A stretch of DNA of 64,000 bases from Escherichia coli (GCF_044324875.1 NZ_CP172185.1); one strand, 5' to 3'; shown: positions 1,838 through 41,845, counted from the stretch's first letter. Notes: generated from the letters alone by a model not told the origin. Translations and numbers: made by a program.

Positions 1838-3130
1838 TTATACGGTTTTATTGCGCTTCATGACCATTGCCACAATAAGGCTGAGTAAGATTGCACCAAT
1901 AATCCATATCAACGCACGGCTGCCCTGGGACCACAGGCTGTAGATAAAGCCAACGATCACCAACAACATCACCAACGTACCAACGATAAGAATCGGCAAC
2001 GAGGCGTGAATATCATGACGCAGGCGGATCGCCACCACAAACACCGCCAGATAGCAGATCAAAAAGGTGGCGCTGGCAACGCTGGCGAGTGAGCCTAAAT
2101 TCAGCGCCGCCGTCATCAGCATAATCAGCACCACGACAATGATGTTGCCCCAGGTACTCTGCCGCCACAGGGATTTATTCATTAGCTTCGGCAGTTCGCG
2201 TTCGCTGCCCATGTTGTCCATGATGTTAAACACGGCGAACAGGTTCGCGTTGATGGCTGAAGCCGTCGCCAGTAAAGCGCCGATGACGACGATCACATAA
2301 CCCACATGCCCGAGCAGCGGAGAAGCAGCCTGCGCTACGGCGGTATCGGCATATTTTTCTAACTCTAATGCCGATACATCGCTAAGCAAAACCAGCGCCA
2401 GCGAGATATAAAGCAACGTGGTAACGCCAATCGCCACCAGAAACGCCCGTGGCATAATGACCTGCGGATCTTTCACTTTATCCGCCGCGTTCGCCATCAT
2501 GCCAAAGCCCGCATAGGCAAGGAAGGTTATCCCGATACAGGAGAAGAACGCACCGGAGCTGGGGGGCGCAGAGACGGAAATATGCGCCGGTTGCAGCGAC
2601 CAGACACCGGCAATAATCAGCAATAACAGAATCATCATTTTAATGCCGACGAGGATCACTTCCAGCCGCCCTACCGCATGGTTGCTTAAGGAGTTGAAAA
2701 GCGTCATCACCGCAATGATTCCCAACGCGTAGAGCAAAATAAGGTGCTCCTCCTGGCTGCCTTCATGCAAAAACTGCACGGCATAAGCGCCAAAAGCACG
2801 GGCGACCATGGCGATGCTCACCGCCAGCGTCAACAGGTACAGTAACGAGAGCGCCAGCGAAAAGACGCCGTTGCCTAATCCGCGACGAAAGAAGTCGATA
2901 ATACCGCCATTGCTGGGATAGCTCGCCCCCAGGCGCGCATAGGCATAACCGGAAAACATCGCCACAATACCGCCAAAAGCAAAGGCGACCCAGGTCGAGG
3001 CTTCCATTAGCAACGCAGCCTGCCCCAGCAGCGCGAAGATCCCCGCCCCCACCATTGCCCCAATACCGATGGAAACGACGTTCCATAGACCGAGGGGTTT
3101 GTTATCGTTATTACCTTCCGTGTTCATCAT
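1838..3130 (-). CDS. ybaT: APC-family amino acid permease YbaT
   Basis: 430-aa polytopic membrane protein, synteny next to glsA as in E. coli. Confidence 0.9.
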   Translation of the reverse strand: MMNTEGNNDNKPLGLWNVVSIGIGAMVGAGIFALLGQAALLMEASTWVAFAFGGIVAMFSGYAYARLGASYPSNGGIIDFFRRGLGNGVFSLALSLLYLLTLAVSIAMVARAFGAYAVQFLHEGSQEEHLILLYALGIIAVMTLFNSLSNHAVGRLEVILVGIKMMILLLLIIAGVWSLQPAHISVSAPPSSGAFFSCIGITFLAYAGFGMMANAADKVKDPQVIMPRAFLVAIGVTTLLYISLALVLLSDVSALELEKYADTAVAQAASPLLGHVGYVIVVIGALLATASAINANLFAVFNIMDNMGSERELPKLMNKSLWRQSTWGNIIVVVLIMLMTAALNLGSLASVASATFLICYLAVFVVAIRLRHDIHASLPILIVGTLVMLLVIVGFIYSLWSQGSRALIWIIGAILLSLIVAMVMKRNKTV

Positions 3131-3132
3131 GA

Positions 3133-4065
3133 TCAGCCCTTAAACACGTTATAGCCGAGTTGCTTAGCGACCGATGCCACCATTTTTTGACCGCGAACAC
3201 TGTTGCCTTCTTCGTCCAGCGGTGGTGAGAACGCGGCAATTCCCATCACGCCAGGGACGACCGCCAGAATACCGCCACCTACACCGCTTTTGCCCGGTAA
3301 ACCAACGCGATACGCCCAGTCACCGGAGCGACCATACAGCCCTTCCATCATCATTTCAGCCAGAATGTACGGCACGTTGTCGGCCTGAAGAACGCGTTTA
3401 TGCGTCAGCGGATTCACACCACCCGCCGCCAGCGTCGCGCCAAGCGTTGCCAGTTCAACAGTATTGATGAGCGTGGAGCACTGACGGGTGTACACGTCAC
3501 AGGCTTCCATTGCATCACAATAGAGATATCCGGCGGAGTACAGCAGCCAGGCAATGGCCCGGTTATGGAAGTTGGTTGTTTGTTCCGACTGGTTTACTTC
3601 GTCAGAGAGCGCTACCTGCTCACCAGCCAGTTGTTGTTGGATATGTAAAATTCGCTGCCAGCGTTGTTCGGCATTTTCAGCGTTAATCAGGCTGGTGGTG
3701 GCAATAGCGCCAGCATTTACCAGTGGCGACAGCGGTTTGCCGCCATGCAACTCTAAGGCGATAACTGAGTTAAAGGGCAATCCGGTCGGGTCAGCGCCAA
3801 CTTTGTCCTGTACCGCCTGCGGGCCGACATCTTCTAACGCAAGGGCTAACGTACAGACTTTCGAGATGGATTCCAGCGCAAAGCGGTAATCACTCTCACC
3901 CGCGCGATAGATGTTGCCATCGCTGGTCACGATAGCCACTGCCGCCAGTTGACCAGGTACATTCGCCAGAAAGGGAATGTAGTCGGCATTTTGTCCGCCG
4001 TTAAGTGAGTGAAATTGGGTGTAAGCCTGATCCACTGCCTGCTGTAATTTGTTTGCATCTAACAT
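3133..4065 (-). CDS. glsA: Glutaminase 1
   Basis: 310-aa ORF; translation matches the glutaminase (YbaS/GlsA) family as recalled; synteny with ybaT. Confidence 0.92.
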   Translation of the reverse strand: MLDANKLQQAVDQAYTQFHSLNGGQNADYIPFLANVPGQLAAVAIVTSDGNIYRAGESDYRFALESISKVCTLALALEDVGPQAVQDKVGADPTGLPFNSVIALELHGGKPLSPLVNAGAIATTSLINAENAEQRWQRILHIQQQLAGEQVALSDEVNQSEQTTNFHNRAIAWLLYSAGYLYCDAMEACDVYTRQCSTLINTVELATLGATLAAGGVNPLTHKRVLQADNVPYILAEMMMEGLYGRSGDWAYRVGLPGKSGVGGGILAVVPGVMGIAAFSPPLDEEGNSVRGQKMVASVAKQLGYNVFKG

Positions 4066-4255
4066 CTTTTGTTAACTCCTTTTTATAGATGCGGGAGGTA
4101 ATTCCTCACCCCGGTGCCGATTTTCAGGCATCCTGATTTAACTTAGCACCCGCAACTTAACTACAGGAAAACAAAGAGATAAATGTCTAATCCTGATGCA
4201 AATCGAGCCGATTTTTTAATCTTTACGGACTTTTACCCGCCTGGTTTATTAATTT

Positions 4256-4275
4256 CTTGACCTTCCCCTTGCTGG
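4256..4275. repeat. attL core (direct repeat copy 1)
   Basis: 20/20 identity with 39269..39288; lies 70 bp downstream of the int stop. Confidence 0.8.
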
Positions 4276-4344
4276 GGACAAAGAACTGCGTGGTGTAAAA
4301 TAACACCACGCAATATCAATAAGTTACATAACCACTTTAACTCT

Positions 4345-5388
4345 CTACCTCCCTTTTTCCTCAAAATGTGGACACTCAATGGACATATCACATAGCGGAT
4401 TATGCATCACAGCATCGCTTAAATAATCCGGCGAAAAATGCGCATAAGTCATTGTCTGAGATATATCTGCATGACCGAGGATTTTTTGAAGAGAAATAAT
4501 ATTCCCCCCATTCATCATAAAATGGGTGGCAAATGTATGCCTCAATACATGAACCGCTTGACCGTCCGGCAAATTAGGCTTAGCCACCTTCAGTTTCAGC
4601 CTAAACCATTTATAACTCACCCGAAATAAACGCCCCTCCTTGCGATGTTTTACAAGCCTAACAACATCATCAGAAACAGGAACAACCCGACGCTTATTAT
4701 TTTTTGTGAAATTAAATACAACCTTATTACCGATAATATGTTCCCCCATTAGCTGATATGCTTCATTCCAGCGACAGCCTGTAGACAACAAAAGGACAGC
4801 CATTCGGTAATAATCTCCCGAACCCTTGCAGATAGAAAGAAACGCACCAATCTCTTCATGATTAAGATAAGCCATCTCTGGGGTTTTTTCCTTGAGGCGA
4901 GGAAGCGACAATACAGGGTTACTACCGTGATATTCACCAATCTCTGCCATAGCCTTTAACGCAGCGCTAAACGCAAAAAGATCATGGTTGATTGTAGATG
5001 CCTTAACCCCTTGATCGAGACGGCGCGATCTATATTCAGCAACCATGCGTTCATCAATCTCGTACATCATAGGGTCACCCATATCAAGACAAATACACTG
5101 GAGGTTATTCAGTCTACGATTCGCGTAATCCTTGTGACGACCTATCAGTAACCACCACGTCGCAATGAAATCGCTTAAATATCGCTTGTCCAGAAGATTA
5201 CCGAAAACATCAACAGAAGGGCGATCAGCAAGAACTTCGCGTTCAAATGCTACAGCCAGATTTTTTTTCTCAAACTTCCGACGAATGCGCCTTCCCTTAC
5301 TTCCGTCGGGTCGAATGTCCACAAAATAGCGACCATCTTCGAGCTTCTTAATTGACATAAGAAGACCCTCCAACAGTCCATTCTCCAT
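4345..5388 (-). CDS. int: Tyrosine integrase, P2 Int family
   Basis: 347 aa; N-terminus MSIKKLEDGRYFVDIRPDG...RRIRRKFEKK and C-terminal HxLRHTFATHF...GHADISQTMTYAHF catalytic region resemble P2 Int as recalled. Confidence 0.92.
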   Translation of the reverse strand: MENGLLEGLLMSIKKLEDGRYFVDIRPDGSKGRRIRRKFEKKNLAVAFEREVLADRPSVDVFGNLLDKRYLSDFIATWWLLIGRHKDYANRRLNNLQCICLDMGDPMMYEIDERMVAEYRSRRLDQGVKASTINHDLFAFSAALKAMAEIGEYHGSNPVLSLPRLKEKTPEMAYLNHEEIGAFLSICKGSGDYYRMAVLLLSTGCRWNEAYQLMGEHIIGNKVVFNFTKNNKRRVVPVSDDVVRLVKHRKEGRLFRVSYKWFRLKLKVAKPNLPDGQAVHVLRHTFATHFMMNGGNIISLQKILGHADISQTMTYAHFSPDYLSDAVMHNPLCDMSIECPHFEEKGR

Positions 5389-10259: not shown

Positions 10260-12749
10260 ATGGAGTTCGTCAGAGACTGGCAAAAACCGCGCCCCGCTAT
10301 CGGGCGCGAAGGCTTACCCGTACCTGAAACCGCACTGGATACCATCCTGAAGTGTTACCGCGCAGACGAAGAGCGCGCACTGCACGCTGAAGAGCAGGGT
10401 CATCCGCTTGCGGGCACAACCATCGGTAACGCGATCGACAAGTGGGAAGGCGCACAGGAGCGCCAGGAAGAGGCCATCACGCTCACACAGGAAGCGAGAA
10501 GACACCCGCCCACCCTTATTGAGGAAACCCTCAAAGAGCTGGACACCCTGCCCAAGTGGTTGAGGCTGCCGCTGATTAAGCACCTGAACTTTTTAAGGCG
10601 CAAACAGGAGGACGAACAGCAGAAAGGCAAGCGCGGCAAGGACACCCGCAAATATGAGCGCTTCCTGAAAAACGGCATCCCCGCACGTCTTCGCCGTATT
10701 CGTGAGATTAACGCTCGCTTTGCACCGTTAAGTTTTCAGGCCGCTGCCATGCGCGAGAGTCTGGAAGAACTGATCACACTGCCGAACCTGAGCCGTGAAC
10801 GCATCCAGAAAATAGCCGTACTGCTTGCCAGCGCCGTTAAAATGCATCTTGCCGACGCAATGGACAAGGCCCGCGAAATAACAGGGAACGACAAAGACGA
10901 CAACCTGAACAACTGGCTGATTGCCTACCAGTATATTGGTCGCCGTGTCCTGAAGCTGGGGATCACCCCACCATACTGGAGCGCCCTTGAACTCCGCCCC
11001 GACCGCAGAAGCCCCCCGGACGTGACACTGGTTCCGGGCGCTGTTTTGCGCCTGAACGACGCCGAATGGTGGAATAAAAAACTTCGCCAGATGCACGACG
11101 TCTGGCGTGAGGAACTTTTACGTGCAGCGGGCCTTGTATCCCGCCAGACCTCCGTTTATGTGAGCCGTGAAGCGCTGGCAGACTTCCGCGAAAAACAGGC
11201 CCGTACCCGCGATTTTCTCAAAGCGCACGACGTGGAGAACGAAGACGGCGAACGCATCAGTCTGGAAGATATCTACTACGCCAGTACATCCAACCCGCAT
11301 AACCGCCGCAACGAGATGATGGCGTGCGTTAAGGGAATGGAGCTTATCGCACAGGAACGCGGCGACGTGGCCTTCTTCGTCACGGTCACAGCCCCGTCTC
11401 GTTTTCACAGCGTCACCGACGCAGGCACGCTGAACCCGAAATACAAAGGCGCAACCGTAAAGGACGCCAGCGACTATCTGGTTTATAACTTCTTCGCCTC
11501 CGCCCGCAAACTCATCAAAAAAGAGAAGCGGGGCTGGTACGGCATTCGCACCGTGGAGCCTCACCACGACGGCACGCCCCACTGGCACATGCTGGTATTC
11601 ACAAGCCCTGAGAACGAAGAGCGCATCACGGAAATCATGTGCAATGCCGCCATTCGCGAAGACCGGGCAGAGCTGGGCGACGACATCACCCCGCGCTTCA
11701 AGTGCGAGAAGATAGATCCCGAAAAAGGCACGCCAACCAGCTACATCGCCACCTACATAGGCAAAGGCATTGACGCCGCTGCATTCGGCGACACGGATCC
11801 AAAAACAGGTAAACCGCCCGTTGACCACGAAAGCGGAAAACCTATGGCGGACACCGTGGAAAACGCCGTCGCCTGGGCGCGCCTGCATCGCATTCGCCAG
11901 TTCCAGTTCTTTGGCCTCCCTTCCCGTCAGGTGTGGCGTGAGTTCCGCCGCCTTGCCGGACAAATGGCACGCAACCCGAAGGGGCCGCAGGCACTGACCA
12001 ACCCCAAAGCCGACGCCCTCCTTGTTGCAGCCGATACGGGGTGTTTTGCCAGCTACATCATGCATCAGGGCGGTGTGCTCATTCCCCGTAGTGAATATCT
12101 GGCCCGCACAGCCTACGTCACCGCAGAAGAGCCGAACAATTACAGCGAATTCCCCGAGCGCATTTACGGTATCCGCATGCCGGAACTGGGGGAGGACTTC
12201 ACGTTATGCACCCACCCGGAAGAGTGGAAAATCGTCAGAAAGGAACCGGAACCAGACAACCGCACGGGCGAGGGTTTTGACCTTCAGGGCGGCCCCGCCG
12301 CCCCTTGGACTCGTGGCAATAACTGTCACCCTGACGAAAAAACAACCAACAACAGCACACAAACCGGACAGTCAGAGTGGGCAAAACTGCCCCCCTTACC
12401 CCCATCGTCGGACGGTTTTGTGAGCTGGTTTAAGTCGCTTAAGAGGCCGGACAGGAAAAAACTACAAAGATTGCTCAAAAAACGCACCGAAGAGAGTCGC
12501 CAGAACGCCAGCGGCGGCACCGACACACCCACCGACACCATTAACCTGGGCGTTGTGCTGCCGGAACTGCCGGAAATCGTGCAAGTCCGCCGCGATCTGG
12601 AAGCGCTGGGCGCGGACTTCCCCGAAGCAATGGCCCATTCCGTCTTTATGGGTGCCCGCGTTCGTCTGGGTAACGGTCGCACCGTTCACCGCGACGAGCA
12701 GACCGGGCGCATCACCGTCACCAGTCTGCAACCGGAGGCGAAACCATGA
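10260..12749 (+). CDS. A: Replication initiation protein, P2 gene A family (rolling-circle endonuclease)
   Basis: 829 aa; contains an HUH-type metal-binding motif (HDGTPHWHMLVF) and a downstream tyrosine motif (SYIATYIGKG), as in rolling-circle initiators; position as for P2 A. Confidence 0.85.
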   Translation: MEFVRDWQKPRPAIGREGLPVPETALDTILKCYRADEERALHAEEQGHPLAGTTIGNAIDKWEGAQERQEEAITLTQEARRHPPTLIEETLKELDTLPKWLRLPLIKHLNFLRRKQEDEQQKGKRGKDTRKYERFLKNGIPARLRRIREINARFAPLSFQAAAMRESLEELITLPNLSRERIQKIAVLLASAVKMHLADAMDKAREITGNDKDDNLNNWLIAYQYIGRRVLKLGITPPYWSALELRPDRRSPPDVTLVPGAVLRLNDAEWWNKKLRQMHDVWREELLRAAGLVSRQTSVYVSREALADFREKQARTRDFLKAHDVENEDGERISLEDIYYASTSNPHNRRNEMMACVKGMELIAQERGDVAFFVTVTAPSRFHSVTDAGTLNPKYKGATVKDASDYLVYNFFASARKLIKKEKRGWYGIRTVEPHHDGTPHWHMLVFTSPENEERITEIMCNAAIREDRAELGDDITPRFKCEKIDPEKGTPTSYIATYIGKGIDAAAFGDTDPKTGKPPVDHESGKPMADTVENAVAWARLHRIRQFQFFGLPSRQVWREFRRLAGQMARNPKGPQALTNPKADALLVAADTGCFASYIMHQGGVLIPRSEYLARTAYVTAEEPNNYSEFPERIYGIRMPELGEDFTLCTHPEEWKIVRKEPEPDNRTGEGFDLQGGPAAPWTRGNNCHPDEKTTNNSTQTGQSEWAKLPPLPPSSDGFVSWFKSLKRPDRKKLQRLLKKRTEESRQNASGGTDTPTDTINLGVVLPELPEIVQVRRDLEALGADFPEAMAHSVFMGARVRLGNGRTVHRDEQTGRITVTSLQPEAKP

Positions 12750-13156
12750 ACCGTTATCATTGTGTACTGCCGCGCCACTACTTCGGTCAGATTATGCGCT
12801 CGCGTATTCCGGCGGTCACGCTGCGAAACCTGAGCACGGTACCGCAGCCGGGCGATGAGCTGGAAATCGCCGTAGCAGGCCCTGACCGTTCAGCCAGCTG
12901 CGTGACCGCCGACGTGCTGAACGCCGTGCCCGTAGGTGGTGACTGGCTGGTTGCCATCCGCTTCCGCCAAGACCCGTTCGCACCTGAACCGCTCACCCCC
13001 GCAGGCCGCATCATGCAGAACTGGCGGGATGAAGGCGCGAAGGCGAACTGCGAAAAACTGATTAACAGGATTGCCACGACAAACCGACATGCCGCGCTGG
13101 CGCGCCGGATATACCCCGCAAAACCGACACAACCAACAGGAGTAAAACGCCCATGA
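12746..13156 (+). CDS. Hypothetical protein (136 aa), start overlaps the gene A stop
   Basis: ATGA overlap with A; unknown function. Confidence 0.5.
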   Translation: MNRYHCVLPRHYFGQIMRSRIPAVTLRNLSTVPQPGDELEIAVAGPDRSASCVTADVLNAVPVGGDWLVAIRFRQDPFAPEPLTPAGRIMQNWRDEGAKANCEKLINRIATTNRHAALARRIYPAKPTQPTGVKRP

Positions 13157-13292
13157 AAAGAATCGCCGGAACCCACAGAGACACAAAAAGACACCAAAAG
13201 CAGCAAAGACACATTGAATAAACGAAAACTGGTGATATGATTTGTTCAAAGATGTTATGATTTATTCATAAGTAACCTTTCAGGCTTAAGTT

Positions 13293-13667
13293 ATGAATAA
13301 ACAGGATTTTGGACTTGATACCCTTTTGAGTATGCATGGTTACCAGCATCACATGGATAACGGGTACTGGTGGAAAATTGAGGCTTACCGGGTAAGTCCA
13401 AGTCCGTTCAGACCTCACGGGATACGCTACAATCTGACGTTACATGACCGCTACAATTCGCGTGTGTTTGGTATGGACAACGCACATGGAATAAAACCGC
13501 CAAAGAAGGGAAGATTTACAGGAAAGTTAACTGTTTATGATCATGTGCACCGTACCCCGGTGGATAAAGGTTATCCCTATGAGTTTGTATCCGCAGAACA
13601 ATTGTTATCTGATTTCTTTGATAACGTTGATCGGCTCATTAACGAAGTTACAAAGGGGAAAGCATGA
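13293..13667 (+). CDS. Hypothetical small protein (124 aa), first gene of an overlapping two-gene module in the A-to-Q cargo region
   Basis: ORF with own upstream promoter-like region (direct repeats atgatttgtt / atgatttatt); stop overlaps the next start (ATGA). H/Y/W-rich; no motif I can assign with confidence. Confidence 0.6.
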   Translation: MNKQDFGLDTLLSMHGYQHHMDNGYWWKIEAYRVSPSPFRPHGIRYNLTLHDRYNSRVFGMDNAHGIKPPKKGRFTGKLTVYDHVHRTPVDKGYPYEFVSAEQLLSDFFDNVDRLINEVTKGKA

Positions 13668-14050
13668 AAGCCCGCATCGGGATCATCCCGGAAAAAGTCC
13701 TGCGTCAGCGCCTGATTGAAATTGCCAAGGGGGAGCGGAAACCACACCCCGACGAGCCAAGGGTATGGTTTTCATCCATCAATGCGGCGGGTCAGGCGCT
13801 GAGCAATGAAAATATCTCCCTTCTTCGTCTTATGGATGAGGAGAAACCGCAGACCATGACCGAACTTGCGGAGTTATCCGGCAGAAAACTGAGTAACCTG
13901 TCTGTAACCCTGAAAATGCTGAGCAGCTACGGTTTTGTCAGTCTGGAAAAGAAAGGAAATACCGTACACCCGAAGGCACTTTTTACCGATTTTGAAATCA
14001 TCGTTGATCCGTCCGTCGGTTCAGTACATCGCGCCACCGCCCGCCCCTGA
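13664..14050 (+). CDS. Putative winged-helix DNA-binding protein (128 aa), second gene of the two-gene module
   Basis: Central MarR/winged-helix-like segment (MTELAELSGRKLSNLSVTLKMLSSYGFVSLEKKG); translationally coupled to 13293..13667. Confidence 0.6.
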   Translation: MKARIGIIPEKVLRQRLIEIAKGERKPHPDEPRVWFSSINAAGQALSNENISLLRLMDEEKPQTMTELAELSGRKLSNLSVTLKMLSSYGFVSLEKKGNTVHPKALFTDFEIIVDPSVGSVHRATARP

Positions 14051-14063
14051 AGTGTGCAATAAA

Positions 14064-14090
14064 CAGCCCCGGTCGGGGCTGTTTTTTATT
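14064..14090. terminator. Bidirectional intrinsic terminator between the converging 13664..14050 and 14086..14460 genes
   Basis: cagcccc-ggtc-ggggctg hairpin followed by ttttttatt. Confidence 0.6.
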
Positions 14091-14460
14091 CCAGAATCAG
14101 CTGTTCAGGTGTGCAGCCGTACAGTCTGGCAAGGCGCTCAATATTTGCCCTGCGCGGGCGTTCTGTTCTTTCGAATTCGGACACGGTAGCCTGCCTGATA
14201 CCCAGCGCATCCGCCACCTGCTTTTGCGTCATTCCGCGATAGATTCGCCACGCCGCCTGCATGGTGCAGCCACGTTCCGAGAGGATGTTGACCACCTCGT
14301 TGGGATACAGCGTATCAGGCGATGCACTCGGTTCGTTCTGGACGTCCTCGTAGAGTTCGTCAAGGTCGCTGTCTCCTGCCAGTTTTTCAAACAACGCCAC
14401 TGGCAGAATGACGGATACCCTGTTACCCGCACCGTCAGTAATAAACTGAATCTGACTCAT
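14086..14460 (-). CDS. XRE-family helix-turn-helix protein (124 aa), candidate antitoxin
   Basis: C-terminal HTH_XRE-like segment (MTQKQVADALGIRQATVSEFERTERPRRANIERLARLYG); downstream of and co-oriented with a RelE/ParE-like ORF. Confidence 0.6.
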   Translation of the reverse strand: MSQIQFITDGAGNRVSVILPVALFEKLAGDSDLDELYEDVQNEPSASPDTLYPNEVVNILSERGCTMQAAWRIYRGMTQKQVADALGIRQATVSEFERTERPRRANIERLARLYGCTPEQLILE

Positions 14461-14533
14461 TTGCCCCTCCTGCTAAACATCGGTTTATTTTTTAATTTGC
14501 TGCCGGTGATAAAAAACGGCGGGTCGCCCCGCC

Positions 14534-14806
14534 TTAGTATGTTGTCGAGGTTCTCCGCTGAATACGGAGGATCCTGATAACCACTATCTGCCCTCCCTCA
14601 ATCGTGAACCTGACACGGTAATGATTTACCCTGAGTCTGTACTCCCCGCCCGAGTCAGTGAGCTTTTTAATATCCAGATTCTGGAACTTCGGATAGCCAT
14701 AAAGCGCGTTAACTTTCTCGCGTAAGGATTTCTGATCCCTCGCTGGCAAAACCCGTAAATCTTTGATTGCCCGAGGGGTCCACATGATTTCAGTCGTCAT
14801 AAACAC
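14534..14806 (-). CDS. RelE/ParE-superfamily toxin-like protein (about 88-90 aa; start GTG 14806 or ATG 14800)
   Basis: N-terminal ...WTPRAIKDLRVL... and C-terminal YRLRVNHYRVRF...IVVIRI segments resemble RelE/ParE/HigB-type toxins. Confidence 0.6.
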   Translation of the reverse strand: MFMTTEIMWTPRAIKDLRVLPARDQKSLREKVNALYGYPKFQNLDIKKLTDSGGEYRLRVNHYRVRFTIEGGQIVVIRILRIQRRTSTTY

Positions 14807-14851
14807 ACCGGAAGCAAATTATTAAAGAGCCGTGCCCGCTGGCACACCTTA

Positions 14852-14880
14852 AATATAGGTTTTAACCCCTATATTGTCAA
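14852..14880 (-). promoter_or_regulatory. Sigma70-like promoter (TTGACA-N17-TATATT on minus strand) with an embedded 7-bp inverted repeat operator, upstream of the RelE-like gene
   Basis: Minus-strand ttgaca / 17-bp spacer / tatatt; spacer contains atatagg...cctatat palindrome (plus 14853..14874). Confidence 0.55.
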
Positions 14881-15057
14881 ACAAAATCCCTATATCATGA
14901 AGTAAAAAAGCACCTCCCGCGACCTCCCTTTCCGGTGCACGAAAGTGCACAAATTTGCACAATTTTTTTGAACGACTTTTTGCCCTTCCGGCCCGTGTGG
15001 CGTCTGGATCCGTCGGGGATCCGTGCGTGCACGAAAAAAGGCCTTTTTCTGCGCGCA

Positions 15058-15076
15058 GGTGACGGGGGAACAGCCC
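15058..15076 (+). other. Candidate cos (cohesive end) 19-mer ggtgacgggggaacagccc
   Basis: GC-rich 19-mer in the non-coding region between early/cargo genes and the portal gene; matches 13 of 19 positions of the P2 cos sequence as I recall it (GGCGAGGCGGGGAAAGCAC). Tentative. Confidence 0.3.
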
Positions 15077-15389
15077 GCGTTTCAGGGGGTAAATAGCATT
15101 CCCTGAACGATGTTGCAGTGACACAACAGAATGGCTGTATTTCTCACGCTGAGCGTGAAAAAGACGTAAGGGCTTTTGATTTGATGGGGTGAAAGATAAG
15201 GCCGTCAAAATCGCACTGAGGCAGCGAGAATATGTCGTCAGAGTTGCGGGGTTGCGTAAGCATCCGCCCGGCGATGATGGCTACAGGGCTGGAGATGTTG
15301 TGAAATTATCTGAAGGAATAACCAGCTTGCAGGAGAACCCGGGCAAAGTCAGAATAGCGGCAGGCATCAACTCAAAAGAGGATAATGTC

Positions 15390-15893
15390 ATGAGCCACTT
15401 TAATGATTTATGCCAGATCAATCGTGAAGCTGAAGAAAAACGCGCTGAGGCAGCTCAAATTTTGCGGGATGAAGCGGCAAGGCTGATTGATTTCTATGAA
15501 GAATGGCTGGGGCTTCCATCCATGTACTGGGAAGACGATGATGGCGACCTGCACCGCTACGTGGAGACAGGCTTGCCATGTAAGACAGCGGCGGATTTTA
15601 GTCCTCTTTCAGTCCACAATATCGCATCTGCACCAGACAATATTTTCCGCATGGCCGTACGAACCTGGGTAAAGTCATCTGACAGCAGCTACCCGGTAAG
15701 CGTGGTTATTGCACTTGAATTATATTCAGTAGATGCGGAACGGGTGTCTCTGAGAGTCCGGGTGGAAGACGATATTTCTGTTCGCGTATTTATCAATAAA
15801 CCCAGCGAAGAAGCCTGGGGCGATGTTGTTATGCACATGAAAAAGCACATCGCTAATCACCTGAAAAAGCGAGCGCCATCAGCACTTCGTTAA
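15390..15893 (+). CDS. Hypothetical protein (167 aa from ATG 15390 with AAGAGG ribosome binding site), orphan gene next to the portal gene
   Basis: ORF 15189..15893 with best start at 15390; acidic, no recognisable motif; preceded by about 580 bp without credible coding potential. Confidence 0.55.
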   Translation: MSHFNDLCQINREAEEKRAEAAQILRDEAARLIDFYEEWLGLPSMYWEDDDGDLHRYVETGLPCKTAADFSPLSVHNIASAPDNIFRMAVRTWVKSSDSSYPVSVVIALELYSVDAERVSLRVRVEDDISVRVFINKPSEEAWGDVVMHMKKHIANHLKKRAPSALR

Positions 15894-15908
15894 GCAGAGC
15901 TGGAGAGT

Positions 15909-15933
15909 CGGGGCATAAATTTTTTATGCCCCG
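15909..15933. terminator. Bidirectional hairpin (11-bp stem cggggcataaa / tttatgccccg) between the orphan gene and Q
   Basis: Perfect 11-bp stem, 3-nt loop, A/T tracts on both sides. Confidence 0.6.
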
Positions 15934-15959
15934 GCGAAGCAGCAGACAAGCGAAGCGCG

Positions 15960-17015
15960 TCAGGATATGGGCCGGGTGTCTAACAGTGCGTAAGGGTTAA
16001 AACGGATCACCTCTTCGCCCAGCCAGTCGTTGACGTGTTTCATTGCTTCCATGACGGGCATCAGTTCGTTAATGGCAAACACACGGGCTGCCTTCTCCAC
16101 ATCCCCGAATGACCCCTTCTCACCCGGCATGGCCCCCATCAGCTGAGGTGGCACGCGGTGCACAGCCAGCACGTCATCACGCGATGCGGCCTTGACGTTC
16201 ATGAACTCATCCTTTGCGGTGATTTGCTGAAACGGCAAAATCTGTACGCCATCCTTACCACCTCCCGCCGCGTGGATGAGCAGATTTTTAAACGCCCCGC
16301 CACCACGCGCGCTTTGCAGCGTTTCCCGCAGTTTTTCCATGCTTTCACGGTCAACCTGCGCCGCACCGATGTAGACAATACAGCCCGCGTGTGAGCCGTT
16401 ATCGTAGTAGAGCTTGCGGAAGATATCGGCGGAATGTGACAGGCTGGCAGACAGCAGGCCGCCCAGGTAATCCGGCATCCCGTAAATCTCCTGGTTGATA
16501 TCAGGATTCATCAGGTGGCATATCGTCCCCTCACGAAAGCGGTACTCTTCCTGTCCTTCCTGTATATACCACCATGATTTCATATCGCTGCCACGTCGCA
16601 TGTATTTCGCCAGCGCCCGGCGCAGGGCCAGCGGTTCGCCAAGCATGTTGCGCCGCAGCTCAAGACAGGCATTACCGAACACAAACCAGTCCATCGCCAC
16701 CCCGGCGAACTCCTGGCGGGACAGCAGAGGATGTGGAATATAGCAGCCCAGCAGCACATTACGTTTGAAGCTGAGCGCCGACTGGTGCCAGGACGTCTGG
16801 CGGGCAGCCCGTGCCAGTCCGTACCAGTCAACGGGCGTTTCAAACCACCGCCCGTTGTCGGCGCAGTACATGCTGTCCAGCAGGTCGGCCCCTGACAGCC
16901 GGTAAGGTCCTTCAAACGTGAAGGCACTCAGTGTCGGGTCGCTTCGCAGGGAATCCGCAAGGCTGCCCTGCGCTGCGCGGGCGTTCGTACGTCGTTGTTT
17001 ATTTTTTCTGCTCAT
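15960..17015 (-). CDS. Q: Portal protein, P2 gpQ family
   Basis: 351 aa (P2 Q is about 344 aa as recalled); divergent from the O-N-M-L capsid operon and adjacent to P as in P2. Confidence 0.85.
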   Translation of the reverse strand: MSRKNKQRRTNARAAQGSLADSLRSDPTLSAFTFEGPYRLSGADLLDSMYCADNGRWFETPVDWYGLARAARQTSWHQSALSFKRNVLLGCYIPHPLLSRQEFAGVAMDWFVFGNACLELRRNMLGEPLALRRALAKYMRRGSDMKSWWYIQEGQEEYRFREGTICHLMNPDINQEIYGMPDYLGGLLSASLSHSADIFRKLYYDNGSHAGCIVYIGAAQVDRESMEKLRETLQSARGGGAFKNLLIHAAGGGKDGVQILPFQQITAKDEFMNVKAASRDDVLAVHRVPPQLMGAMPGEKGSFGDVEKAARVFAINELMPVMEAMKHVNDWLGEEVIRFNPYALLDTRPIS

Positions 17016-30410: not shown

Positions 30411-33400
30411 CTAATCTCTGTCACGGAAACTACCGACTGTCTGGCGGATACGGCGTTCCATTTCCGCACGGACGGCATCACCCACCATTTTTGCCAGTTC
30501 GCGCGGGTTTTGCGTGTGAACATCATGCAGGTGAATATGCAGTTCGCCAGTTAATCCCCATGGTGCCGGATCACTCTGACGCGGTCGGGGCGATGCGGGG
30601 GATATGGGCTGGCGTACAGCCTCAACCACCGGACGGGATGTTGCCGTTACGACGGGTGTCATTACCGGCGCAATATTGCCGGACACGACCGGTTTAATTA
30701 CCGGGGAGAGCGTCGGTATAACATCGCCAGCCATAACCGGTTTGATCGCTGGCGAAATAACCGGAGCAACAGACTCAGCCATGACGGAACTGACAGGCTG
30801 AGGCGCTCTCACTATGCCAGCATCGATAACCAGCATGAGCTCGCGTACTGCCTCAAGGACAGGACGGGATATTGCCGCCATCACTGGTGTCATTAGCGGG
30901 GAGAACGTCGGCATGACATCGTGAGTCATAACCGGTTTGATCACCGGCGAAACCACTGGCGTAATATTACCGGACAGTACCGGACGGACGACCGGAGGAA
31001 TAACCGGCACATTATTCACGGACACCACCGGCTTCACGACCGGCGACACGTTCGCCGTGGTGGATATCAGCGGCGAAACACTGACAGGCGGTGGCGCTGG
31101 CAGCGGTGGCAACGAAGGCACACTGACCGACGGCACCTGCGGCAGTCTGACAGGTGGCTCACTGACACTACCCGGTAACAGGGAAGCTGCGCGGTTAAAG
31201 CGTTCCTCCTTCCACTCACCACGAACGGCCAGCGCTTCCGGCAGGTTTTTAAAGATAATATCGCCGGGACCAGTGCGTTTTTTCGCCTGTTTCGCCTCAT
31301 CCAGCAGGCCACCGGTGTTATCGACGATTTTATTCAGGCGACGCATGGTGCCGGTATTCTCCCCCGTCAGCGGAGCAGTTGCTGCAGGTGCAGGTACTGG
31401 CGGCTTTTTGTCTTTGTCATTTTGCGGCGGATTAATGACATTAACATCCGCCAGGAGCATGGCGGCTTTCTCGTTCAGCAGCTCCTTCTGCTTCAGCTCT
31501 TCCGCCTTTTTCCGGGCGCGCTCAACCGCCGACGGAATCAGCCCGAGTTTTTCCAGCACCCGGGTTAACGAGTCAACCAGCAGCGTGACCGGACCGGTCA
31601 CCAGATTGCTGATAAACTCCCCGACCTTCTGCCCGAACGTCCGCCCGGCTTCCGTGCACTTGTCCAGCTCATCCTTTGTTGTGCTTACCGGCGCGAACAG
31701 GTCCACGAACCACTGCCACACACGCCCGATTGTCTGCCCGACGTACTCAAATATCGGTCCCAGCGGTGCCACAGCCTCGCGCAGTGGCGTAAGCCCCTGC
31801 CACAGGCCGGACAGATACCCACCCACGACAGCCTTCAGCTGGTCCCAGTGCCGCCAGATAAGCACTGCCGCACCGACCAGTGCCGCCACCACGAGGCCCA
31901 CCGGACTTAACAGAAAACCCAGCGCCCCGCCAAGTGCGCCCACCGCACCACTCACCATTCCCCACAGCGCAGGCAGACCTGACAGTCTGAGCGCCAGCAT
32001 ACCGATACCGCGCCCCAGAGAAAGCAGAGCACCGCCCGGGGAAGTGAACGCAGCCAGCAGACCACCACGCAGCGTACCGAGTAGTCCGCGCACGCCACGA
32101 AGCCGGACCGCAAGCCGTCCCGCACCGGTATCAAGACCGGCAAACAGCACACGCCAGCCGCCAATACCACTCATCGACCCACCGAGTACGCCGCGCAGCT
32201 GCGTCAGTAACGGCAGCGCACGACCGAGGCCGGATGTGCCGGTCAGCAGGGAAAAGCCAAGACGCAGTTTTGCCAGCGGCCCCAGCAACACGCCGGTAGC
32301 CAGTGACAGCGCCCCCGTGGCCGCAACCGCAGCCAGCAGTGCACCACCGGCAATCAGCAGTTGTTTTGTCAGTTCAGGGTGCGCCTGGGCCAGCGCGGTG
32401 ACTTTCGCAATAACCCGGGTGAACGACTGCGTGACAGAACGCAGCGGCCCGTCAACGAGGTCAGCGACACGGATACGCAGCCCTTCCCATGCGCTGTTCA
32501 GTGATTTCAGGTCGCCGTCCAGGTTGTCCGCCATGATTCTGGCGTTTTCTTCCAGTTCGCCGTTCGCTGCCTGAATCTCACGCGTCAGGCGCGGCAGGTT
32601 TTTTTCGCCTGCCTGTTCAACCAGGCTCATCAGGGAGACATACGCCTCCTGCCCGGCAATATCTGAAAAGAACGAGACTTTTGCCGCGTTACCGTATTTA
32701 CGGGTGGCCTGATACAGCTCATACAGGATATCTTCCATCGGGCGCATGTTCCCGTAAGCATCCTGCGTTTCCACGCCCAGCTGTTTCAGCGCCTTTGCTG
32801 CCGCTTTAGGCGGGTTCACAAGGCGGGACAGACTGGAGCGCAGCGCCGTACCAGCATCACTGCCACGTATCCCCATCGACCCAAGCAACCCGGTCATGGC
32901 TGCGGTCTGTTCAAGAGACAGACCGAGTGAGGCGGCGACCGGTCCCGTATATTTCATCGTCTCACCAAGCCCGCGCAGGTCGGTATTGGTGCGGGTGAAC
33001 GTTGCGGCCAGCGTGTCACCCACGCGGTTCATCTGGTCGGCAGACAACCCGAACTGCGTAAGGATATTTGAGCTGATATCGGCCGTCTGACCGAGGTCCA
33101 TGCCGCTGGCCGTTGCCAGATTCAGCACGCCGGGAAGAGCCGCCTGTATCGCCTGCGGCGTGAACCCCGCCATGGCAAGGAACGCCTGACCGCTGGCAGC
33201 ATCACCTGCGGTAAACTGCGTTTCGGAGCCGAGTTTAAGCGCCTGTTCGCGCAGCGCCTTAAACTGCGGACTGTTTTTGTCAATACGGGTCAGCGCCTGG
33301 ACGCGCGACATCTCCTTACCAAAACTGACCGCCGGTTGCAGGAAACGCCCGGCCGCATAGCCACCTGCCGCTGCCGTGCCGACTGCCGTAAATCCACCCG

Positions 33401-33932
33401 CTTTCAGTTTTCCCGCCATCTCCTGAGCGCGGAAATATTGCTGGCGTGCCTGCGTGACGCGTGCCAGAGTCTGCCGTTCACGTTCCAGCTGTTCGTTGTA
33501 TTGCTGTGTTCGCCGTATGGCCTGTTGAATGGTGTTGTCACTGCCGGAAAGCGCAATACCGTGACGCCGCAGCTCACCACCCAGTTCGCGCATTCGCTGA
33601 ACTTCACGCGCACGGACCTCATTGAGACGCTCAAGTTTGAGGCTCAAATCGTTCATCAGCTTTTTCTGTTTGTCAGACAGCACGGTTCCGGCGCGCTGAA
33701 TTTGCTGAAGTGCGCTTAACTGGCGTTGTGCCCGGGCAATGCCGTTTCCGGCCTTGTTTGCAGCCTCGCGGGCGCGATCAAATGAACGGGCGTGGCGTTC
33801 CAGGTTTTTGATCGCACCCTGCGTTCTCTGTATGGAGTCGCCAAGCTGGCCCATCATGCGACGGGCGTTTTCGGTGGGACGGGTCAGCCTGTCAACAGCG
33901 CTGAAGGCGACCCGTATATCAAGCGTTTTCAT
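30411..33932 (-). CDS. T: Tail tape measure protein (gpT-like), 1173 aa from the ATG overlapping the E' stop, with Pro/Val-rich repetitive C-terminus
   Basis: Very long Ala/Gly/Leu-rich ORF following the E/E' chaperone pair; the ORF track start at 33968 is an over-extension. Confidence 0.85.
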   Translation of the reverse strand: MKTLDIRVAFSAVDRLTRPTENARRMMGQLGDSIQRTQGAIKNLERHARSFDRAREAANKAGNGIARAQRQLSALQQIQRAGTVLSDKQKKLMNDLSLKLERLNEVRAREVQRMRELGGELRRHGIALSGSDNTIQQAIRRTQQYNEQLERERQTLARVTQARQQYFRAQEMAGKLKAGGFTAVGTAAAGGYAAGRFLQPAVSFGKEMSRVQALTRIDKNSPQFKALREQALKLGSETQFTAGDAASGQAFLAMAGFTPQAIQAALPGVLNLATASGMDLGQTADISSNILTQFGLSADQMNRVGDTLAATFTRTNTDLRGLGETMKYTGPVAASLGLSLEQTAAMTGLLGSMGIRGSDAGTALRSSLSRLVNPPKAAAKALKQLGVETQDAYGNMRPMEDILYELYQATRKYGNAAKVSFFSDIAGQEAYVSLMSLVEQAGEKNLPRLTREIQAANGELEENARIMADNLDGDLKSLNSAWEGLRIRVADLVDGPLRSVTQSFTRVIAKVTALAQAHPELTKQLLIAGGALLAAVAATGALSLATGVLLGPLAKLRLGFSLLTGTSGLGRALPLLTQLRGVLGGSMSGIGGWRVLFAGLDTGAGRLAVRLRGVRGLLGTLRGGLLAAFTSPGGALLSLGRGIGMLALRLSGLPALWGMVSGAVGALGGALGFLLSPVGLVVAALVGAAVLIWRHWDQLKAVVGGYLSGLWQGLTPLREAVAPLGPIFEYVGQTIGRVWQWFVDLFAPVSTTKDELDKCTEAGRTFGQKVGEFISNLVTGPVTLLVDSLTRVLEKLGLIPSAVERARKKAEELKQKELLNEKAAMLLADVNVINPPQNDKDKKPPVPAPAATAPLTGENTGTMRRLNKIVDNTGGLLDEAKQAKKRTGPGDIIFKNLPEALAVRGEWKEERFNRAASLLPGSVSEPPVRLPQVPSVSVPSLPPLPAPPPVSVSPLISTTANVSPVVKPVVSVNNVPVIPPVVRPVLSGNITPVVSPVIKPVMTHDVMPTFSPLMTPVMAAISRPVLEAVRELMLVIDAGIVRAPQPVSSVMAESVAPVISPAIKPVMAGDVIPTLSPVIKPVVSGNIAPVMTPVVTATSRPVVEAVRQPISPASPRPRQSDPAPWGLTGELHIHLHDVHTQNPRELAKMVGDAVRAEMERRIRQTVGSFRDRD

Positions 33933-34445
33933 GCTCTGCGTTCCCGCTGCGAAGGGCCGCCCGCTCACGCCAGGCGACCACCTCGCCGGGATCCATCAGG
34001 AAGATTTCAGCGGGAGACCAGTTGAAAATAACGGCGATATCCGCCACAAAGTCTTCAATATGCTCAAAGGGCACGACGGTTATCAGCCTGCCGTCGCCGC
34101 CACGCTCTTCCCGCCAGAGTCCTGACCGGCCAAAAAATTAACCGCCACCCCGCACAGCTGAATAAAATCAGCGGACCCCATGCGCTTAAGCATAACCTCG
34201 TCCAGTCGCGGCGAAGTGACGCGCGGGAGTAACTCAAACATCGCGTCCGTTTTCATGTTCAGCACGTCAAGCAGTGACAGCCCGCGCAGTGAACCGGCCT
34301 GCTGTACAGCAGGCGTGATTTCCACATACGTGATTTTTTTGTTACCGAGCACAAGGGGTGTTTTCAGTGTCACGCCGCGCTCACTGGTCACGTCAGCCAC
34401 ATCAGCACCGTCAGTAACAGGGGCAACAACCGGATTTTCTTTCAT
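33919..34445 (-). CDS. Tail assembly chaperone frameshift product E+E' (programmed -1 frameshift at 34131..34137)
   Basis: Manual translation in the -1 frame after T_TTT_TTG gives an extended product ending at TGA 33919..33921, overlapping the tape measure start. Confidence 0.7.
34083..34445 (-). CDS. E: Tail assembly chaperone, P2 gpE family (zero-frame product)
   Basis: 120-aa ORF upstream of the tape measure gene; carries the slippery heptamer near its 3' end. Confidence 0.8.
   Translation of the reverse strand: MKENPVVAPVTDGADVADVTSERGVTLKTPLVLGNKKITYVEITPAVQQAGSLRGLSLLDVLNMKTDAMFELLPRVTSPRLDEVMLKRMGSADFIQLCGVAVNFLAGQDSGGKSVAATAG
34131..34137 (-). promoter_or_regulatory. Programmed -1 ribosomal frameshift heptamer T TTT TTG (E to E')
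   Basis: Heptamer in frame as (AA)T TTT TTG in the last part of E; conserved mechanism in tail chaperone genes. Confidence 0.7.
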
Positions 34446-37592: not shown

Positions 37593-37844
37593 ATGTTCCG
37601 TTGTCCCCTGTGCGGTGCATCCGCACGTATCCGCACCAGTCGCAATGAAAATGATTCAGGCACAGTTCGCCTGAAGTACTACCAGTGCAATAACCTCGAA
37701 TGCGGGATCGGCTTTACCACACTGGAGGGTTTTAACAAATTCACATCAAAACGCGCCCCGTCGCCGCAGGGTACAGAGCGGATACCGTGGGAAGATTTTC
37801 CGGGATCTCACAGGGGGAATGCTCAGATGAATCTTGATATTTAA
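37593..37844 (+). CDS. ogr: Zinc-finger late gene activator, Ogr/Delta family
   Basis: 83 aa with CPLC...C-x4-C zinc-finger spacing and N-terminus MFRCPLCG resembling P2 Ogr (MFHCPLC...). Confidence 0.88.
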   Translation: MFRCPLCGASARIRTSRNENDSGTVRLKYYQCNNLECGIGFTTLEGFNKFTSKRAPSPQGTERIPWEDFPGSHRGNAQMNLDI

Positions 37845-39340: not shown

Positions 39341-41845
39341 ATGTCACAAACTATCGACCTGACCCTGGACGGCCTGTCCTGCGGTCACTGCGTTAAACGC
39401 GTGAAAGAAAGTCTCGAACAGCGCCCGGATGTTGAGCAGGCGGATGTGTCTGTCACTGAAGCGCACGTTACCGGGACTGCCAGTGCAGAACAGCTGATCG
39501 AAACCATCAAACAAGCGGGTTATGACGCATCTGTAAGCCACCCAAAGGCTAAACCGCTGGCGGAGTCATCAATCCCGTCGGAAGCACTGACAGCGGTTTC
39601 TGAGGCGCTTCCGGCAGCGACCGCCGATGACGATGACAGCCAGCAGTTGCTGCTGAGCGGCATGAGCTGCGCCAGCTGTGTCACCCGCGTACAAAATGCG
39701 TTGCAAAGCGTACCGGGCGTCACTCAGGCACGGGTAAACCTGGCGGAGCGTACTGCGCTGGTGATGGGCAGTGCCTCCCCACAAGATTTAGTGCAGGCGG
39801 TGGAAAAAGCGGGCTACGGCGCGGAAGCGATTGAAGATGACGCTAAACGCCGCGAGCGCCAGCAGGAAACCGCCGTCGCTACGATGAAGCGCTTCCGCTG
39901 GCAGGCAATTGTCGCACTGGCGGTGGGTATCCCGGTGATGGTCTGGGGGATGATCGGCGATAACATGATGGTCACCGCTGACAACCGCAGCTTGTGGTTA
40001 GTTATCGGCCTGATAACCCTGGCAGTGATGGTTTTCGCCGGCGGCCATTTTTACCGTAGTGCATGGAAAAGCCTGCTGAACGGTGCAGCGACGATGGATA
40101 CGCTGGTGGCGCTGGGTACTGGCGTGGCGTGGCTCTATTCGATGAGCGTCAACCTGTGGCCGCAGTGGTTCCCGATGGAAGCGCGACATCTTTATTACGA
40201 AGCCAGCGCGATGATTATCGGTCTGATCAATCTCGGTCATATGCTGGAAGCGCGCGCACGTCAGCGTTCTTCAAAGGCGCTGGAGAAATTACTCGATTTA
40301 ACCCCACCGACGGCGCGCCTGGTCACCGACGAAGGTGAAAAAAGCGTGCCGCTGGCGGAAGTGCAGCCAGGTATGTTGCTGCGCCTGACGACCGGCGATC
40401 GCGTGCCGGTAGATGGCGAGATTACCCAGGGCGAAGCATGGCTGGATGAAGCGATGCTGACGGGCGAACCAATCCCGCAGCAAAAAGGCGAAGGCGATAG
40501 CGTCCATGCCGGGACAGTGGTACAGGACGGCAGTGTGCTGTTTCGTGCCAGTGCGGTCGGCAGCCATACTACGCTGTCACGAATCATTCGCATGGTGCGC
40601 CAGGCCCAGAGCAGCAAGCCTGAAATCGGCCAACTGGCGGATAAAATCTCCGCTGTGTTTGTGCCGGTGGTGGTAGTCATTGCGCTGATCAGTGCGGCAA
40701 TCTGGTATTTCTTTGGTCCGGCACCGCAGATTGTCTATACCCTGGTGATTGCCACCACGGTGCTGATTATCGCCTGTCCGTGTGCGCTGGGACTGGCGAC
40801 GCCGATGTCGATTATTTCGGGCGTCGGGCGGGCGGCTGAGTTTGGTGTGCTGGTGCGGGACGCCGACGCGCTGCAACGCGCCAGTACGCTCGACACCGTG
40901 GTGTTCGATAAAACCGGGACGCTGACCGAAGGGAAGCCGCAGGTTGTCGCAGTAAAAACATTTGCTGATGTTGATGAAGCGCAAGCATTGCGTCTGGCGG
41001 CGGCGCTGGAGCAAGGTTCCAGCCACCCGCTGGCACGGGCGATCCTCGATAAAGCAGGTGATATGCAGCTACCGCAGGTCAACGGTTTCCGCACATTGCG
41101 CGGGCTGGGTGTGAGCGGTGAAGCTGAAGGTCATGCGGTATTGCTGGGCAATCAGGCGCTGTTAAATGACCAGCAAGTTGATACTAAAGCGATTGAGGCA
41201 GATATTTCAGCTCAGGCATCGCAAGGTGCAACGCCTGTGCTGCTGGCGGTTGACGGGAAAGCGGTAGCCCTGCTGGCTGTACGCGATCCGTTGCGTAGTG
41301 ATAGCGTGGCGGCGCTGCAACGCCTGCATAAAGCGGGATATCGTCTGGTGATGTTGACCGGGGATAACCCAACCACCGCCAATGCGATCGCCAAAGAAGC
41401 AGGGATTGATGAGGTGATAGCCGGCGTGCTGCCGGACGGTAAAGCCGAAGCGATCAAACGTCTTCAAAGTGAAGGACGTCAGGTGGCAATGGTGGGCGAC
41501 GGCATTAACGATGCGCCAGCGCTGGCTCAGGCGGATGTCGGTATTGCGATGGGTGGCGGCAGTGATGTTGCCATTGAAACCGCGGCGATTACCCTGATGC
41601 GCCATAGCCTGATGGGTGTTGCAGATGCGCTCGCGATTTCCCGCGCAACGCTGCGCAATATGAAGCAGAACCTGCTCGGTGCGTTTATCTACAACAGCAT
41701 TGGTATTCCGGTCGCCGCCGGTATTTTGTGGCCGTTCACTGGAACACTGCTTAACCCGGTGGTTGCCGGAGCGGCAATGGCGCTCTCGTCGATTACCGTA
41801 GTGAGTAACGCCAACCGGTTACTGCGGTTTAAACCGAAAGAGTGA
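39341..41845 (+). CDS. copA: Copper-exporting P-type ATPase
   Basis: 834 aa; two N-terminal GxxCxxC metal-binding motifs, CPC, DKTGT and GDGINDAP motifs. Confidence 0.97.

Follow-up and report, generated by a model that had tools for sequence, protein, structure and literature searches.

Two probable type II toxin-antitoxin cassettes, TumE/HVO_A0114 and RelE/XRE, in the cos-proximal hotspot of a P88-like Escherichia coli prophage

In P2-like prophages, the site between the replication gene A (gpA) and the portal gene (gpQ), close to cos, is a known hotspot of exchangeable cargo; a survey of 18,150 such E. coli loci recorded 1,650 arrangements (Rousset et al. 2022, PMC9122126). The old-tin genes of P2 and three of eight other systems cloned from this hotspot gave anti-phage activity (PMC9122126), and a 2026 preprint again names the gpA-gpQ site as the main P2 defence hotspot. 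Toxin-antitoxin (TA)-like cargo beside cos is likewise present in P4 (gop-beta-cII) and in other P4/P2 cos-adjacent TA-like systems packaged in P2-type capsids, some of which protect against other phages (PMC9122126); their protein families are unrelated to those described here. We analysed a stretch of 64,000 nucleotides from an E. coli genome (GCF_044324875.1, NZ_CP172185.1), hereafter the window, which contains a P2-family prophage, and studied the 3.2-kb interval between its gene A and its portal gene (12746-15959).

The TumE-TumA superfamily of TA systems was defined in 2023 (Durairaj et al. 2023, PMC10584680). Experiments on six members of the family other than the one treated here, from Thioploca, Thiothrix, Crenothrix, Methylotuvimicrobium, an Ectothiorhodospiraceae bacterium and Allochromatium, showed that TumE is toxic, that TumA neutralises it and that translation is inhibited (PMC10584680). 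The hosts of these validated pairs, which belong to subcluster 1a, are sulfur- and methane-oxidising gammaproteobacteria, and in each pair the toxin gene is preceded by the gene for a small antitoxin (TumA constructs of 289-388 bp including flanks, with the preceding gene accession), one partner family being described as a remote RelB homologue, and "diverse unrelated antitoxins" were anticipated for the other TumE subclusters (PMC10584680).

Our reading, which we consider likely, is that six genes and a cos block occupy the interval, at the cos-proximal hotspot of a P88-like prophage, and that four of the genes form two type II TA cassettes, the other two being unassigned accessory genes. In a megablast search of positions 12000-17000 against phage records, the nearest relatives were P88-like phages (genus Xuanwuvirus, Peduoviridae), and the matches to these phages were limited to the two flanking genes and a short stretch of non-coding DNA. 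Profile matches of the two flanks to phrog_91 and TIGR01540 agreed with an earlier note on this DNA, which had placed a cargo island of 3.2 kb between gene A and the portal gene of a P2-family prophage, and six credible open reading frames (ORFs) were found where it had counted five to six, in the order ORF1 (+), ORF2 (+), ORF3 (+), ORF4 (-), ORF5 (-) and ORF6 (+) (Table 1). The note had also held the genes to be unrelated to tin and old, and searches of the interval proteins in PADLOC, Pfam, NCBIfam and PHROG accordingly found no homology to Tin, Old (OLD family) or orf91 (DUF3850). Its statement that none of the proteins could be assigned had to be given up, since four of the six are named as TA or helix-turn-helix (HTH) components by RefSeq/PGAP, in agreement with Pfam and PHROG; only ORF1 and ORF6 are without an assignment. 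What appeared to be a "dark" island is largely explained by two known TA families in a published hotspot.

The GC content was 0.58-0.61 in gene A and ORF1, 0.35 in the spacer 3' of ORF1, 0.43-0.55 from ORF2 to ORF6 and 0.58 in the portal gene. Because it falls to 0.35-0.55 over 13157-15893, the foreign segment, judged by composition, begins near 13157 and not at 12746. A scan of the interval returned seven promoter-like sites against 2.9 ± 1.6 expected and nine terminator-like sites against 4.1 ± 1.9 expected. The three blocks with promoters and terminators of their own that the earlier note had described could be recognised roughly for tumEA, relE-xre and ORF6, and not for ORF1, which appears to be coupled to gene A. 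An Rfam search of the interval gave a single sub-threshold match, gyrA-RNA on a terminator hairpin, and a search for tRNA genes found none.

Table 1. Positions in the window of the genes, putative regulatory sites and flanks of the interval
Feature	Position	Strand	Evidence or remark
Replication endonuclease gpA (left flank, 829 aa)	10260..12749	+	phrog_91 "nicking at origin of replication" 1.9e-221; PGAP "replication endonuclease"
ORF1, 136 aa, at P2 orf91 position	12746..13156	+	phrog_14984 3.9e-40; ATG overlaps gene A stop (ATGA)
Putative tumEA promoter and possible TumA operator	13214..13268	+	16-nt direct repeats TGATATGATTTGTTCA / TGTTATGATTTATTCA; promoter scan, repeat search
tumE (ORF2), TumE/DUF6516-family toxin, 124 aa	13293..13667	+	PGAP "toxin-antitoxin system TumE family protein" (or "DUF6516")
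tumA-like partner (ORF3), HVO_A0114 winged-helix DNA-binding protein, 128 aa	13664..14050	+	Pfam HVO_A0114 3.8e-16, MarR 3.8e-4
Hairpin terminator common to convergent tumEA and relE-xre	14061..14084		10-bp stem, 6 GC pairs, then T-run
XRE-type HTH antitoxin candidate (ORF4), 124 aa	14086..14460	-	HTH_3 8.6e-11 (residues 72-121); phrog_7241 (transcriptional regulator) 1.3e-29
GC-rich hairpin and T-run within relE/xre spacer (14461-14533, 73 nt)	14518..14533	-	terminator scan
RelE/ParE-superfamily toxin (ORF5), 83-90 aa by start codon choice	14534..14806	-	Pfam ParE_toxin (PF05016) 4.7e-9; phrog_1213 "RelE-like toxin" 1.2e-14
relE-xre promoter TTGACA-17-TATATT, overlapping inverted repeat (putative operator)	14852..14880	-	11/12 consensus positions
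Conserved non-coding block, probably cos/packaging region	14935..15330		alignable to P88, P884B11 and Chuche; sequence on either side divergent
ORF6, 167 aa, phrog_5091 family	15390..15893	+	~580-bp insertion between cos block and portal terminator
Perfect hairpin GGGGCATAAATTTTTTATGCCCC, bidirectional terminator (ORF6; portal/terminase operon), analogue of P2 tQ	15910..15932		-32.6 kcal/mol, z-score -5.7
Portal protein gpQ (right flank, 351 aa)	15960..17015	-	TIGR01540 3.3e-62; phrog_68 1.5e-146

The first cassette is formed by ORF2 and ORF3. ORF2 is identical to WP_029490435, a protein that PGAP assigns to the TumE family, and ORF3, named "HVO_A0114 family putative DNA-binding protein" by PGAP, also matched ArsR and TrmB profiles besides HVO_A0114 and MarR. 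The start codon of tumA overlaps the stop codon of tumE (ATGA). Precomputed PF20126 assignments were present in 117 of the 120 listed homologues of ORF2 (43-87% identical; 169 relatives were found), the closest of which (P0001) had a "weak" assignment. In an alignment of 126 sequences, W26, P41, H42, Y46, T49, H51, R57, G60, D83, H86, Y96 and F108 of TumE were invariant and D62, N63, H65, H84 and D91 near-invariant, a pattern which suggests an active site. The AlphaFold (AF2) model of TumE (predicted local distance difference test score, pLDDT, 88.8; predicted template modelling score, pTM, 0.82) had a helix at each end, the C-terminal one long, and about seven strands forming a sheet. It agreed with the published fold, in which two helices pack on an antiparallel, roughly seven-stranded sheet and for which no PDB entry is a confident match (PMC10584680). 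The cassette thus has in common with the TumE-TumA superfamily the PF20126 homologues, this fold and a two-gene operon with a DNA-binding partner. Upstream of tumE, the direct repeats TGATATGATTTGTTCA and TGTTATGATTTATTCA, with a spacing of 20 nucleotides, overlapped two TATGAT -10 boxes.

The pairing of the two genes was strict. In all 45 other tumE loci (8 genomic or metagenomic and 37 IMG/VR viral loci, from Enterobacterales, Legionella, Shewanella and IMG/VR phages), a homologue of ORF3 was located directly downstream of tumE on the same strand, and the identities of TumE and TumA co-varied across the loci (Spearman rho 0.83). About 11 of the loci, all of P2-like phages, had tumEA between gene A and the portal gene, in divergent backbones (gpA 34-55% and portal protein 30-70% identical); at other loci the pair was found beside integrases (Legionella, Shewanella), between tail genes and the tape-measure gene, and among the replication/ParB-methylase genes of other phages. 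This recurrence in varied accessory sites of phages indicates that tumEA is a mobile two-gene unit. The subtype with tumE first and an HVO_A0114 gene second is consistently borne on phages or prophages and repeatedly occupies the P2 defence hotspot, which makes it a candidate for phage defence or prophage stabilisation.

Natural variants of the locus were found among the nine E. coli genomes, of 5,426 complete genomes searched and mostly from poultry isolates, that carry the segment 13160-14900. In three of the nine, tumE was replaced by two unrelated genes (88 and 193 amino acids), and a 65-nucleotide remnant of the tumE 3' end was kept together with an intact tumA (99% identity). The junctions of this replacement corresponded to positions 13153-13175 and 13603-13667 of the window, and the replaced part was at 1954-2798 of the locus extracted from E. 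coli Br_112_kylling. The two replacing genes are unannotated and had no PHROG function and no match in NCBIfam or PADLOC. The window, for its part, retains the first ~22 nucleotides of the 88-amino-acid gene directly after ORF1, and these reciprocal remnants indicated that the site evolves by recombination in which cassettes are swapped. No tumE without tumA was present among the loci compared. A TA pair is expected to show this asymmetry, in which the presumed toxin is lost and the presumed antitoxin kept, and the natural variants are consistent with these roles.

The second cassette, relE-xre, is convergent to the first and consists of ORF5 ("type II toxin-antitoxin system RelE family toxin" in PGAP) followed by ORF4 ("helix-turn-helix domain-containing protein"). 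The best PDB sequence match of ORF5 was RelE3 of M. jannaschii (3bpq, 3.7e-4). ORF4 has an N-terminal extension of ~60 amino acids before its C-terminal HTH; it resembles RelB faintly, and its matches to the HipB and MqsA antitoxin families were weak. In 10 of 10 viral loci, a RelE homologue (50-63% identical) adjoined an ORF4 homologue (66-69%), upstream on the same strand in nine and downstream in one, and nine of the 10 were in P2-like phages, with the cassette flanked by the portal gene and gene A and oriented as here. The promoter of relE-xre, the strongest promoter match in the interval, directs transcription away from cos and overlaps the inverted repeat AATATAGG-N8-CCTATATT found in the repeat search. 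A toxin gene upstream of an XRE-HTH gene, a RelE/ParE-like toxin of ~90 amino acids and a promoter over an inverted repeat are features of HigBA/RelBE type II systems; unlike those, the cassette has a 73-nucleotide spacer with a hairpin, the ~60-amino-acid antitoxin extension, a toxin that scores under the RelE/StbE cut-off and no close solved homologue. The hairpin inside the operon could attenuate transcription of the antitoxin gene or mark a processing site.

When the site was compared with that of related phages and prophages, its contents were found to vary, as the earlier note had supposed of a variable accessory site and had proposed to examine across P2-like prophages. P88, P884B11 and Chuche carry ParM/ParR and other genes between gpA and cos, the ParM/ParR spans in the extracted loci being 2396-3671 in P88, 2528-3803 in Chuche, 3088-4363 in P884B11 and 3386-4661 in a further locus; maintenance functions may accumulate at the site, or some P88-like phages may be able to persist as plasmids. 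E. coli prophages with a near-identical portal gene had small hypothetical genes, or ParMR and a DUF4760 gene, at the same site. The parts of the interval assorted independently: tumEA occurred without relE-xre or ORF6 (in Salmonella and other P2-like phages), relE-xre without tumEA, and ORF6 with ParMR or other cargo. The interval is a new instance of the published type of hotspot and a fairly ordinary member of it, because Table S5A of PMC9122126 already lists a sibling arrangement with identical ORF3 and ORF4 proteins (WP_029400441 and WP_029400439) and an 88-amino-acid RelE toxin. As in the orf91-tin-old region of P2 (NC_001895), gene A is on one flank and cos and the portal gene are on the other, a small ORF overlaps the stop codon of gene A, and a minus-strand operon is driven from a cos-adjacent promoter, relE-xre being at the position of the old-tin operon. 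The locus differs from P2 in that its cargo is two TA cassettes and in that ORF6 is present on the portal side of cos, where P2 has a terminator only.

The comparisons establish to which families the genes belong, how strictly they are paired, that both cassettes recur in this hotspot and are rare, and where the mosaic junctions are. From family membership and gene arrangement, we infer toxicity, neutralisation, autoregulation and a biological role for the cassettes as follows. The interval is probably a mosaic of separately acquired pieces, in which ORF1 would be translated together with gene A. TumE, as the toxin of a toxin-first type II cassette, would arrest translation, possibly as an RNase, by homology to the TumE toxins tested elsewhere. 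Its HVO_A0114 partner would neutralise the toxin by binding it and would also act as repressor of the operon, with the direct repeats that overlap the -10 boxes as its probable operator. The relE-xre genes would form a HigBA-like cassette whose strong promoter, next to cos, corresponds in position to the old/tin promoter of P2. On the ribosome, mRNA would be cut by the RelE-like toxin, which the XRE protein would neutralise through the N-terminal extension; the XRE protein would also autoregulate at the inverted repeat. ORF6 would be a single-gene moron, that is, an independently expressed accessory gene.

The benefit that the prophage draws from two such cassettes can be read in several ways. 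That they mainly stabilise the prophage or its cargo by addiction is, in our estimate, evenly balanced, and that at least one of them also gives abortive-infection protection against other phages is possible, with the balance leaning somewhat to the negative. The rival that survives best regards both cassettes as purely selfish addiction modules, which act by post-segregational killing and bring no anti-phage benefit, and we judge its chances to be slightly short of even. The movement of both cassettes as two-gene units into integrase-adjacent sites, moron sites of tail modules and the P2 hotspot speaks for it, as do the ParM/ParR stability genes at the same site in P88-like relatives, which suggest a site that collects maintenance functions, and the rarity of the arrangement (9/5426 genomes). 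However, recurrent capture in the defence hotspot of divergent P2-like phages is also expected from selection for defence, and the addiction reading is compatible with the two-cassette explanation, from which it differs on biological role alone. A bolder proposal, that TumE/HVO_A0114 is a phage-borne module of abortive infection or superinfection exclusion and that ORF6, inserted on the portal side of cos, is additionally a factor of defence or counter-defence not described before, we regard as unlikely; if true, it would give the "dark" TumE toxin family its first biological role.

A second rival takes the interval as a host-protective island like old/tin, whose genes jointly make up a single new defence system. 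TA modules are known to be capable of abortive infection. The interval is in a documented defence hotspot, from which old-tin and three of eight other cloned systems were active (PMC9122126), and relE-xre occupies the position of the P2 old-tin operon and of its promoter. Against joint action, the parts assort independently across phages, each pair is self-sufficient as a TA module, and PADLOC matched no defence model in the interval beyond generic HTH hits (ORF3 and ORF4). We consider this rival improbable.

The earlier note had missed that the interval is split by a conserved non-coding block at 14935-15330, which is probably the cos/packaging region. The linear record of P884B11 begins at the base equivalent to position 14981 of the window. 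The 19-nucleotide cos of P2 with its flanks gave no significant alignment with the block, and the placing of cos therefore relies on the conservation of the block and on the first base of the linear P884B11 record. With this block inside the interval, the island is divided into two independent cargo sites, one on either side of cos.

Several results weigh against the assignment of ORF2 and ORF5 to known toxin families. A direct Pfam scan (hmmscan) of ORF2 gave no match even at E<=10, ORF2 had no match in NCBIfam or PADLOC, and PADLOC matched neither toxin. In contrast to the validated TumEA pairs, the toxin gene is first, the partner is a downstream winged-helix protein of 128 amino acids of the HVO_A0114 family, and the pair is phage-borne; we found no experiment on this toxin-first subtype in the searchable literature. 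ORF5 scored 22.6 bits (E 1.1e-4) with TIGR02385, under the curated cut-off of 27.9, and for this reason we placed it at the level of the RelE/ParE superfamily only. A low-scoring alignment of ORF5 with E. coli RelE, in which several basic residues and a C-terminal Tyr line up, is weak evidence pointing to mRNA-interferase chemistry and leaves a choice between RelE-like and ParE-like action. For ORF2, the "weak" PF20126.5 assignment of its closest homologue may explain the failure of the direct scan, the clade of ORF2 apparently being at the edge of the PF20126 Pfam model. Since ORF2 had no direct profile match, its membership in the TumE family rests on its homologues, the PGAP naming and the fold.

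The same results leave room for a third rival, in which ORF2 and ORF3 are not a TA pair and ORF3 is a MarR/ArsR-like transcription factor that regulates ORF2, a non-toxic enzyme. The missing direct Pfam or NCBIfam match of ORF2, the MarR, ArsR and TrmB matches of ORF3, and a partner class and gene order unlike those of the validated pairs would all be accommodated by it. It is opposed by the occurrence of PF20126 in close and distant homologues of ORF2, by the strict pairing and the ATGA overlap, by variants that drop tumE and retain tumA and never the reverse, and by the behaviour of the cassette as mobile cargo, and we hold it to be very improbable.

Of the two unassigned genes, ORF6 is on the portal side of the cos block. 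In P88, P884B11 and Chuche, the hairpin GGGGCATAAATTTTTTATGCCCC is likewise found 3' of the portal gene and the conserved block runs directly into it, whereas the window has ~580 bp with ORF6 between the two. Longer versions of ORF6, starting at 15189 or 15252, were not supported: the phrog_5091 match spans residues 67-233 of the long ORF and the homologues have 167-175 amino acids, both of which fit the ATG at 15390, and the longer PGAP and JGI models extend into the conserved non-coding block. ORF6 at first appeared to be widespread, with 1,141 matching E. coli genomes. This was rejected, because most of these genomes match at the cos block and not at the cargo, and a targeted search found ORF6 in 30 of the 5,426 complete genomes, with differing cargo on the other side of cos. 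Direct scans of ORF6 gave no Pfam, NCBIfam or PADLOC match, and tblastn against 50,697 phage records gave no match. A profile search detected ~40 distant relatives, equal in length to ORF6, one of which occupies the Q-holin moron site of a lambdoid prophage. Members of the phrog_5091 family are thus found in moron sites of two unrelated phage types, and ORF6 is confidently folded, with a fold that has no annotated relatives; as a wholly unannotated family, it is a second, modest lead from this locus. The idea that ORF6 is a packaging or cos-associated accessory factor of the phage lineage rather than cargo draws on its position, immediately flanked by the cos block and the portal/terminase operon, and on the terminator that it has in common with this operon, but is extremely improbable given its absence from P88, P884B11 and Chuche despite the same cos block and terminator, its presence in 30/5426 E. 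coli genomes only, the family member in the lambdoid moron site and the lack of a match in the phage records. In E. coli NZ_LT599825, the 5' part of ORF6 with the cos block (3384750-3385305) and the 3' part (3387886-3388293) are ~2.6 kb apart, which suggests that ORF6 was broken by an insertion there.

ORF1, the other unassigned gene, has a backbone-like composition (GC 0.608; GC at third codon positions, GC3, 0.650) and no promoter of its own. Eight clusters of homologues were found, and phrog_14984 was its sole match, with none in Pfam, NCBIfam or PADLOC. No similarity was detected to P2 orf91 (DUF3850; BLASTP E 1.4) or to the Salmonella gene at the same position. Its arrangement predicts translational coupling with gene A, and we regard ORF1 as a gene-A-linked accessory gene that lies outside the swapped cargo.

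The prophage in the window is ~35 kb long and is flanked by a glutaminase gene (glsA/ybaS-like, 3133-4065, -) and copA (39341-41845, +); it includes an integrase gene (4345-5388, -) and an ogr-like gene (37593-37844, +). A prophage of E. coli TUM9803 carries the interval at 100% identity and is located between ihfA and btuC; related prophages therefore carry the same cargo at different chromosomal sites. The TUM9803 prophage has a HicA/HicB pair at its ogr-proximal end (NZ_CP135671 2637895-2638495), which would make three TA modules in one prophage. Collinearity of the window with TUM9803 including HicAB was considered and rejected, as copA is at the corresponding position of the window and the prophage is at a different site. 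The tape-measure gene of the window (30411-33968, -) is an intact ORF of 1185 amino acids; the TUM9803 annotation makes it a truncated pseudogene, with ~1.7 kb of unannotated sequence after it.

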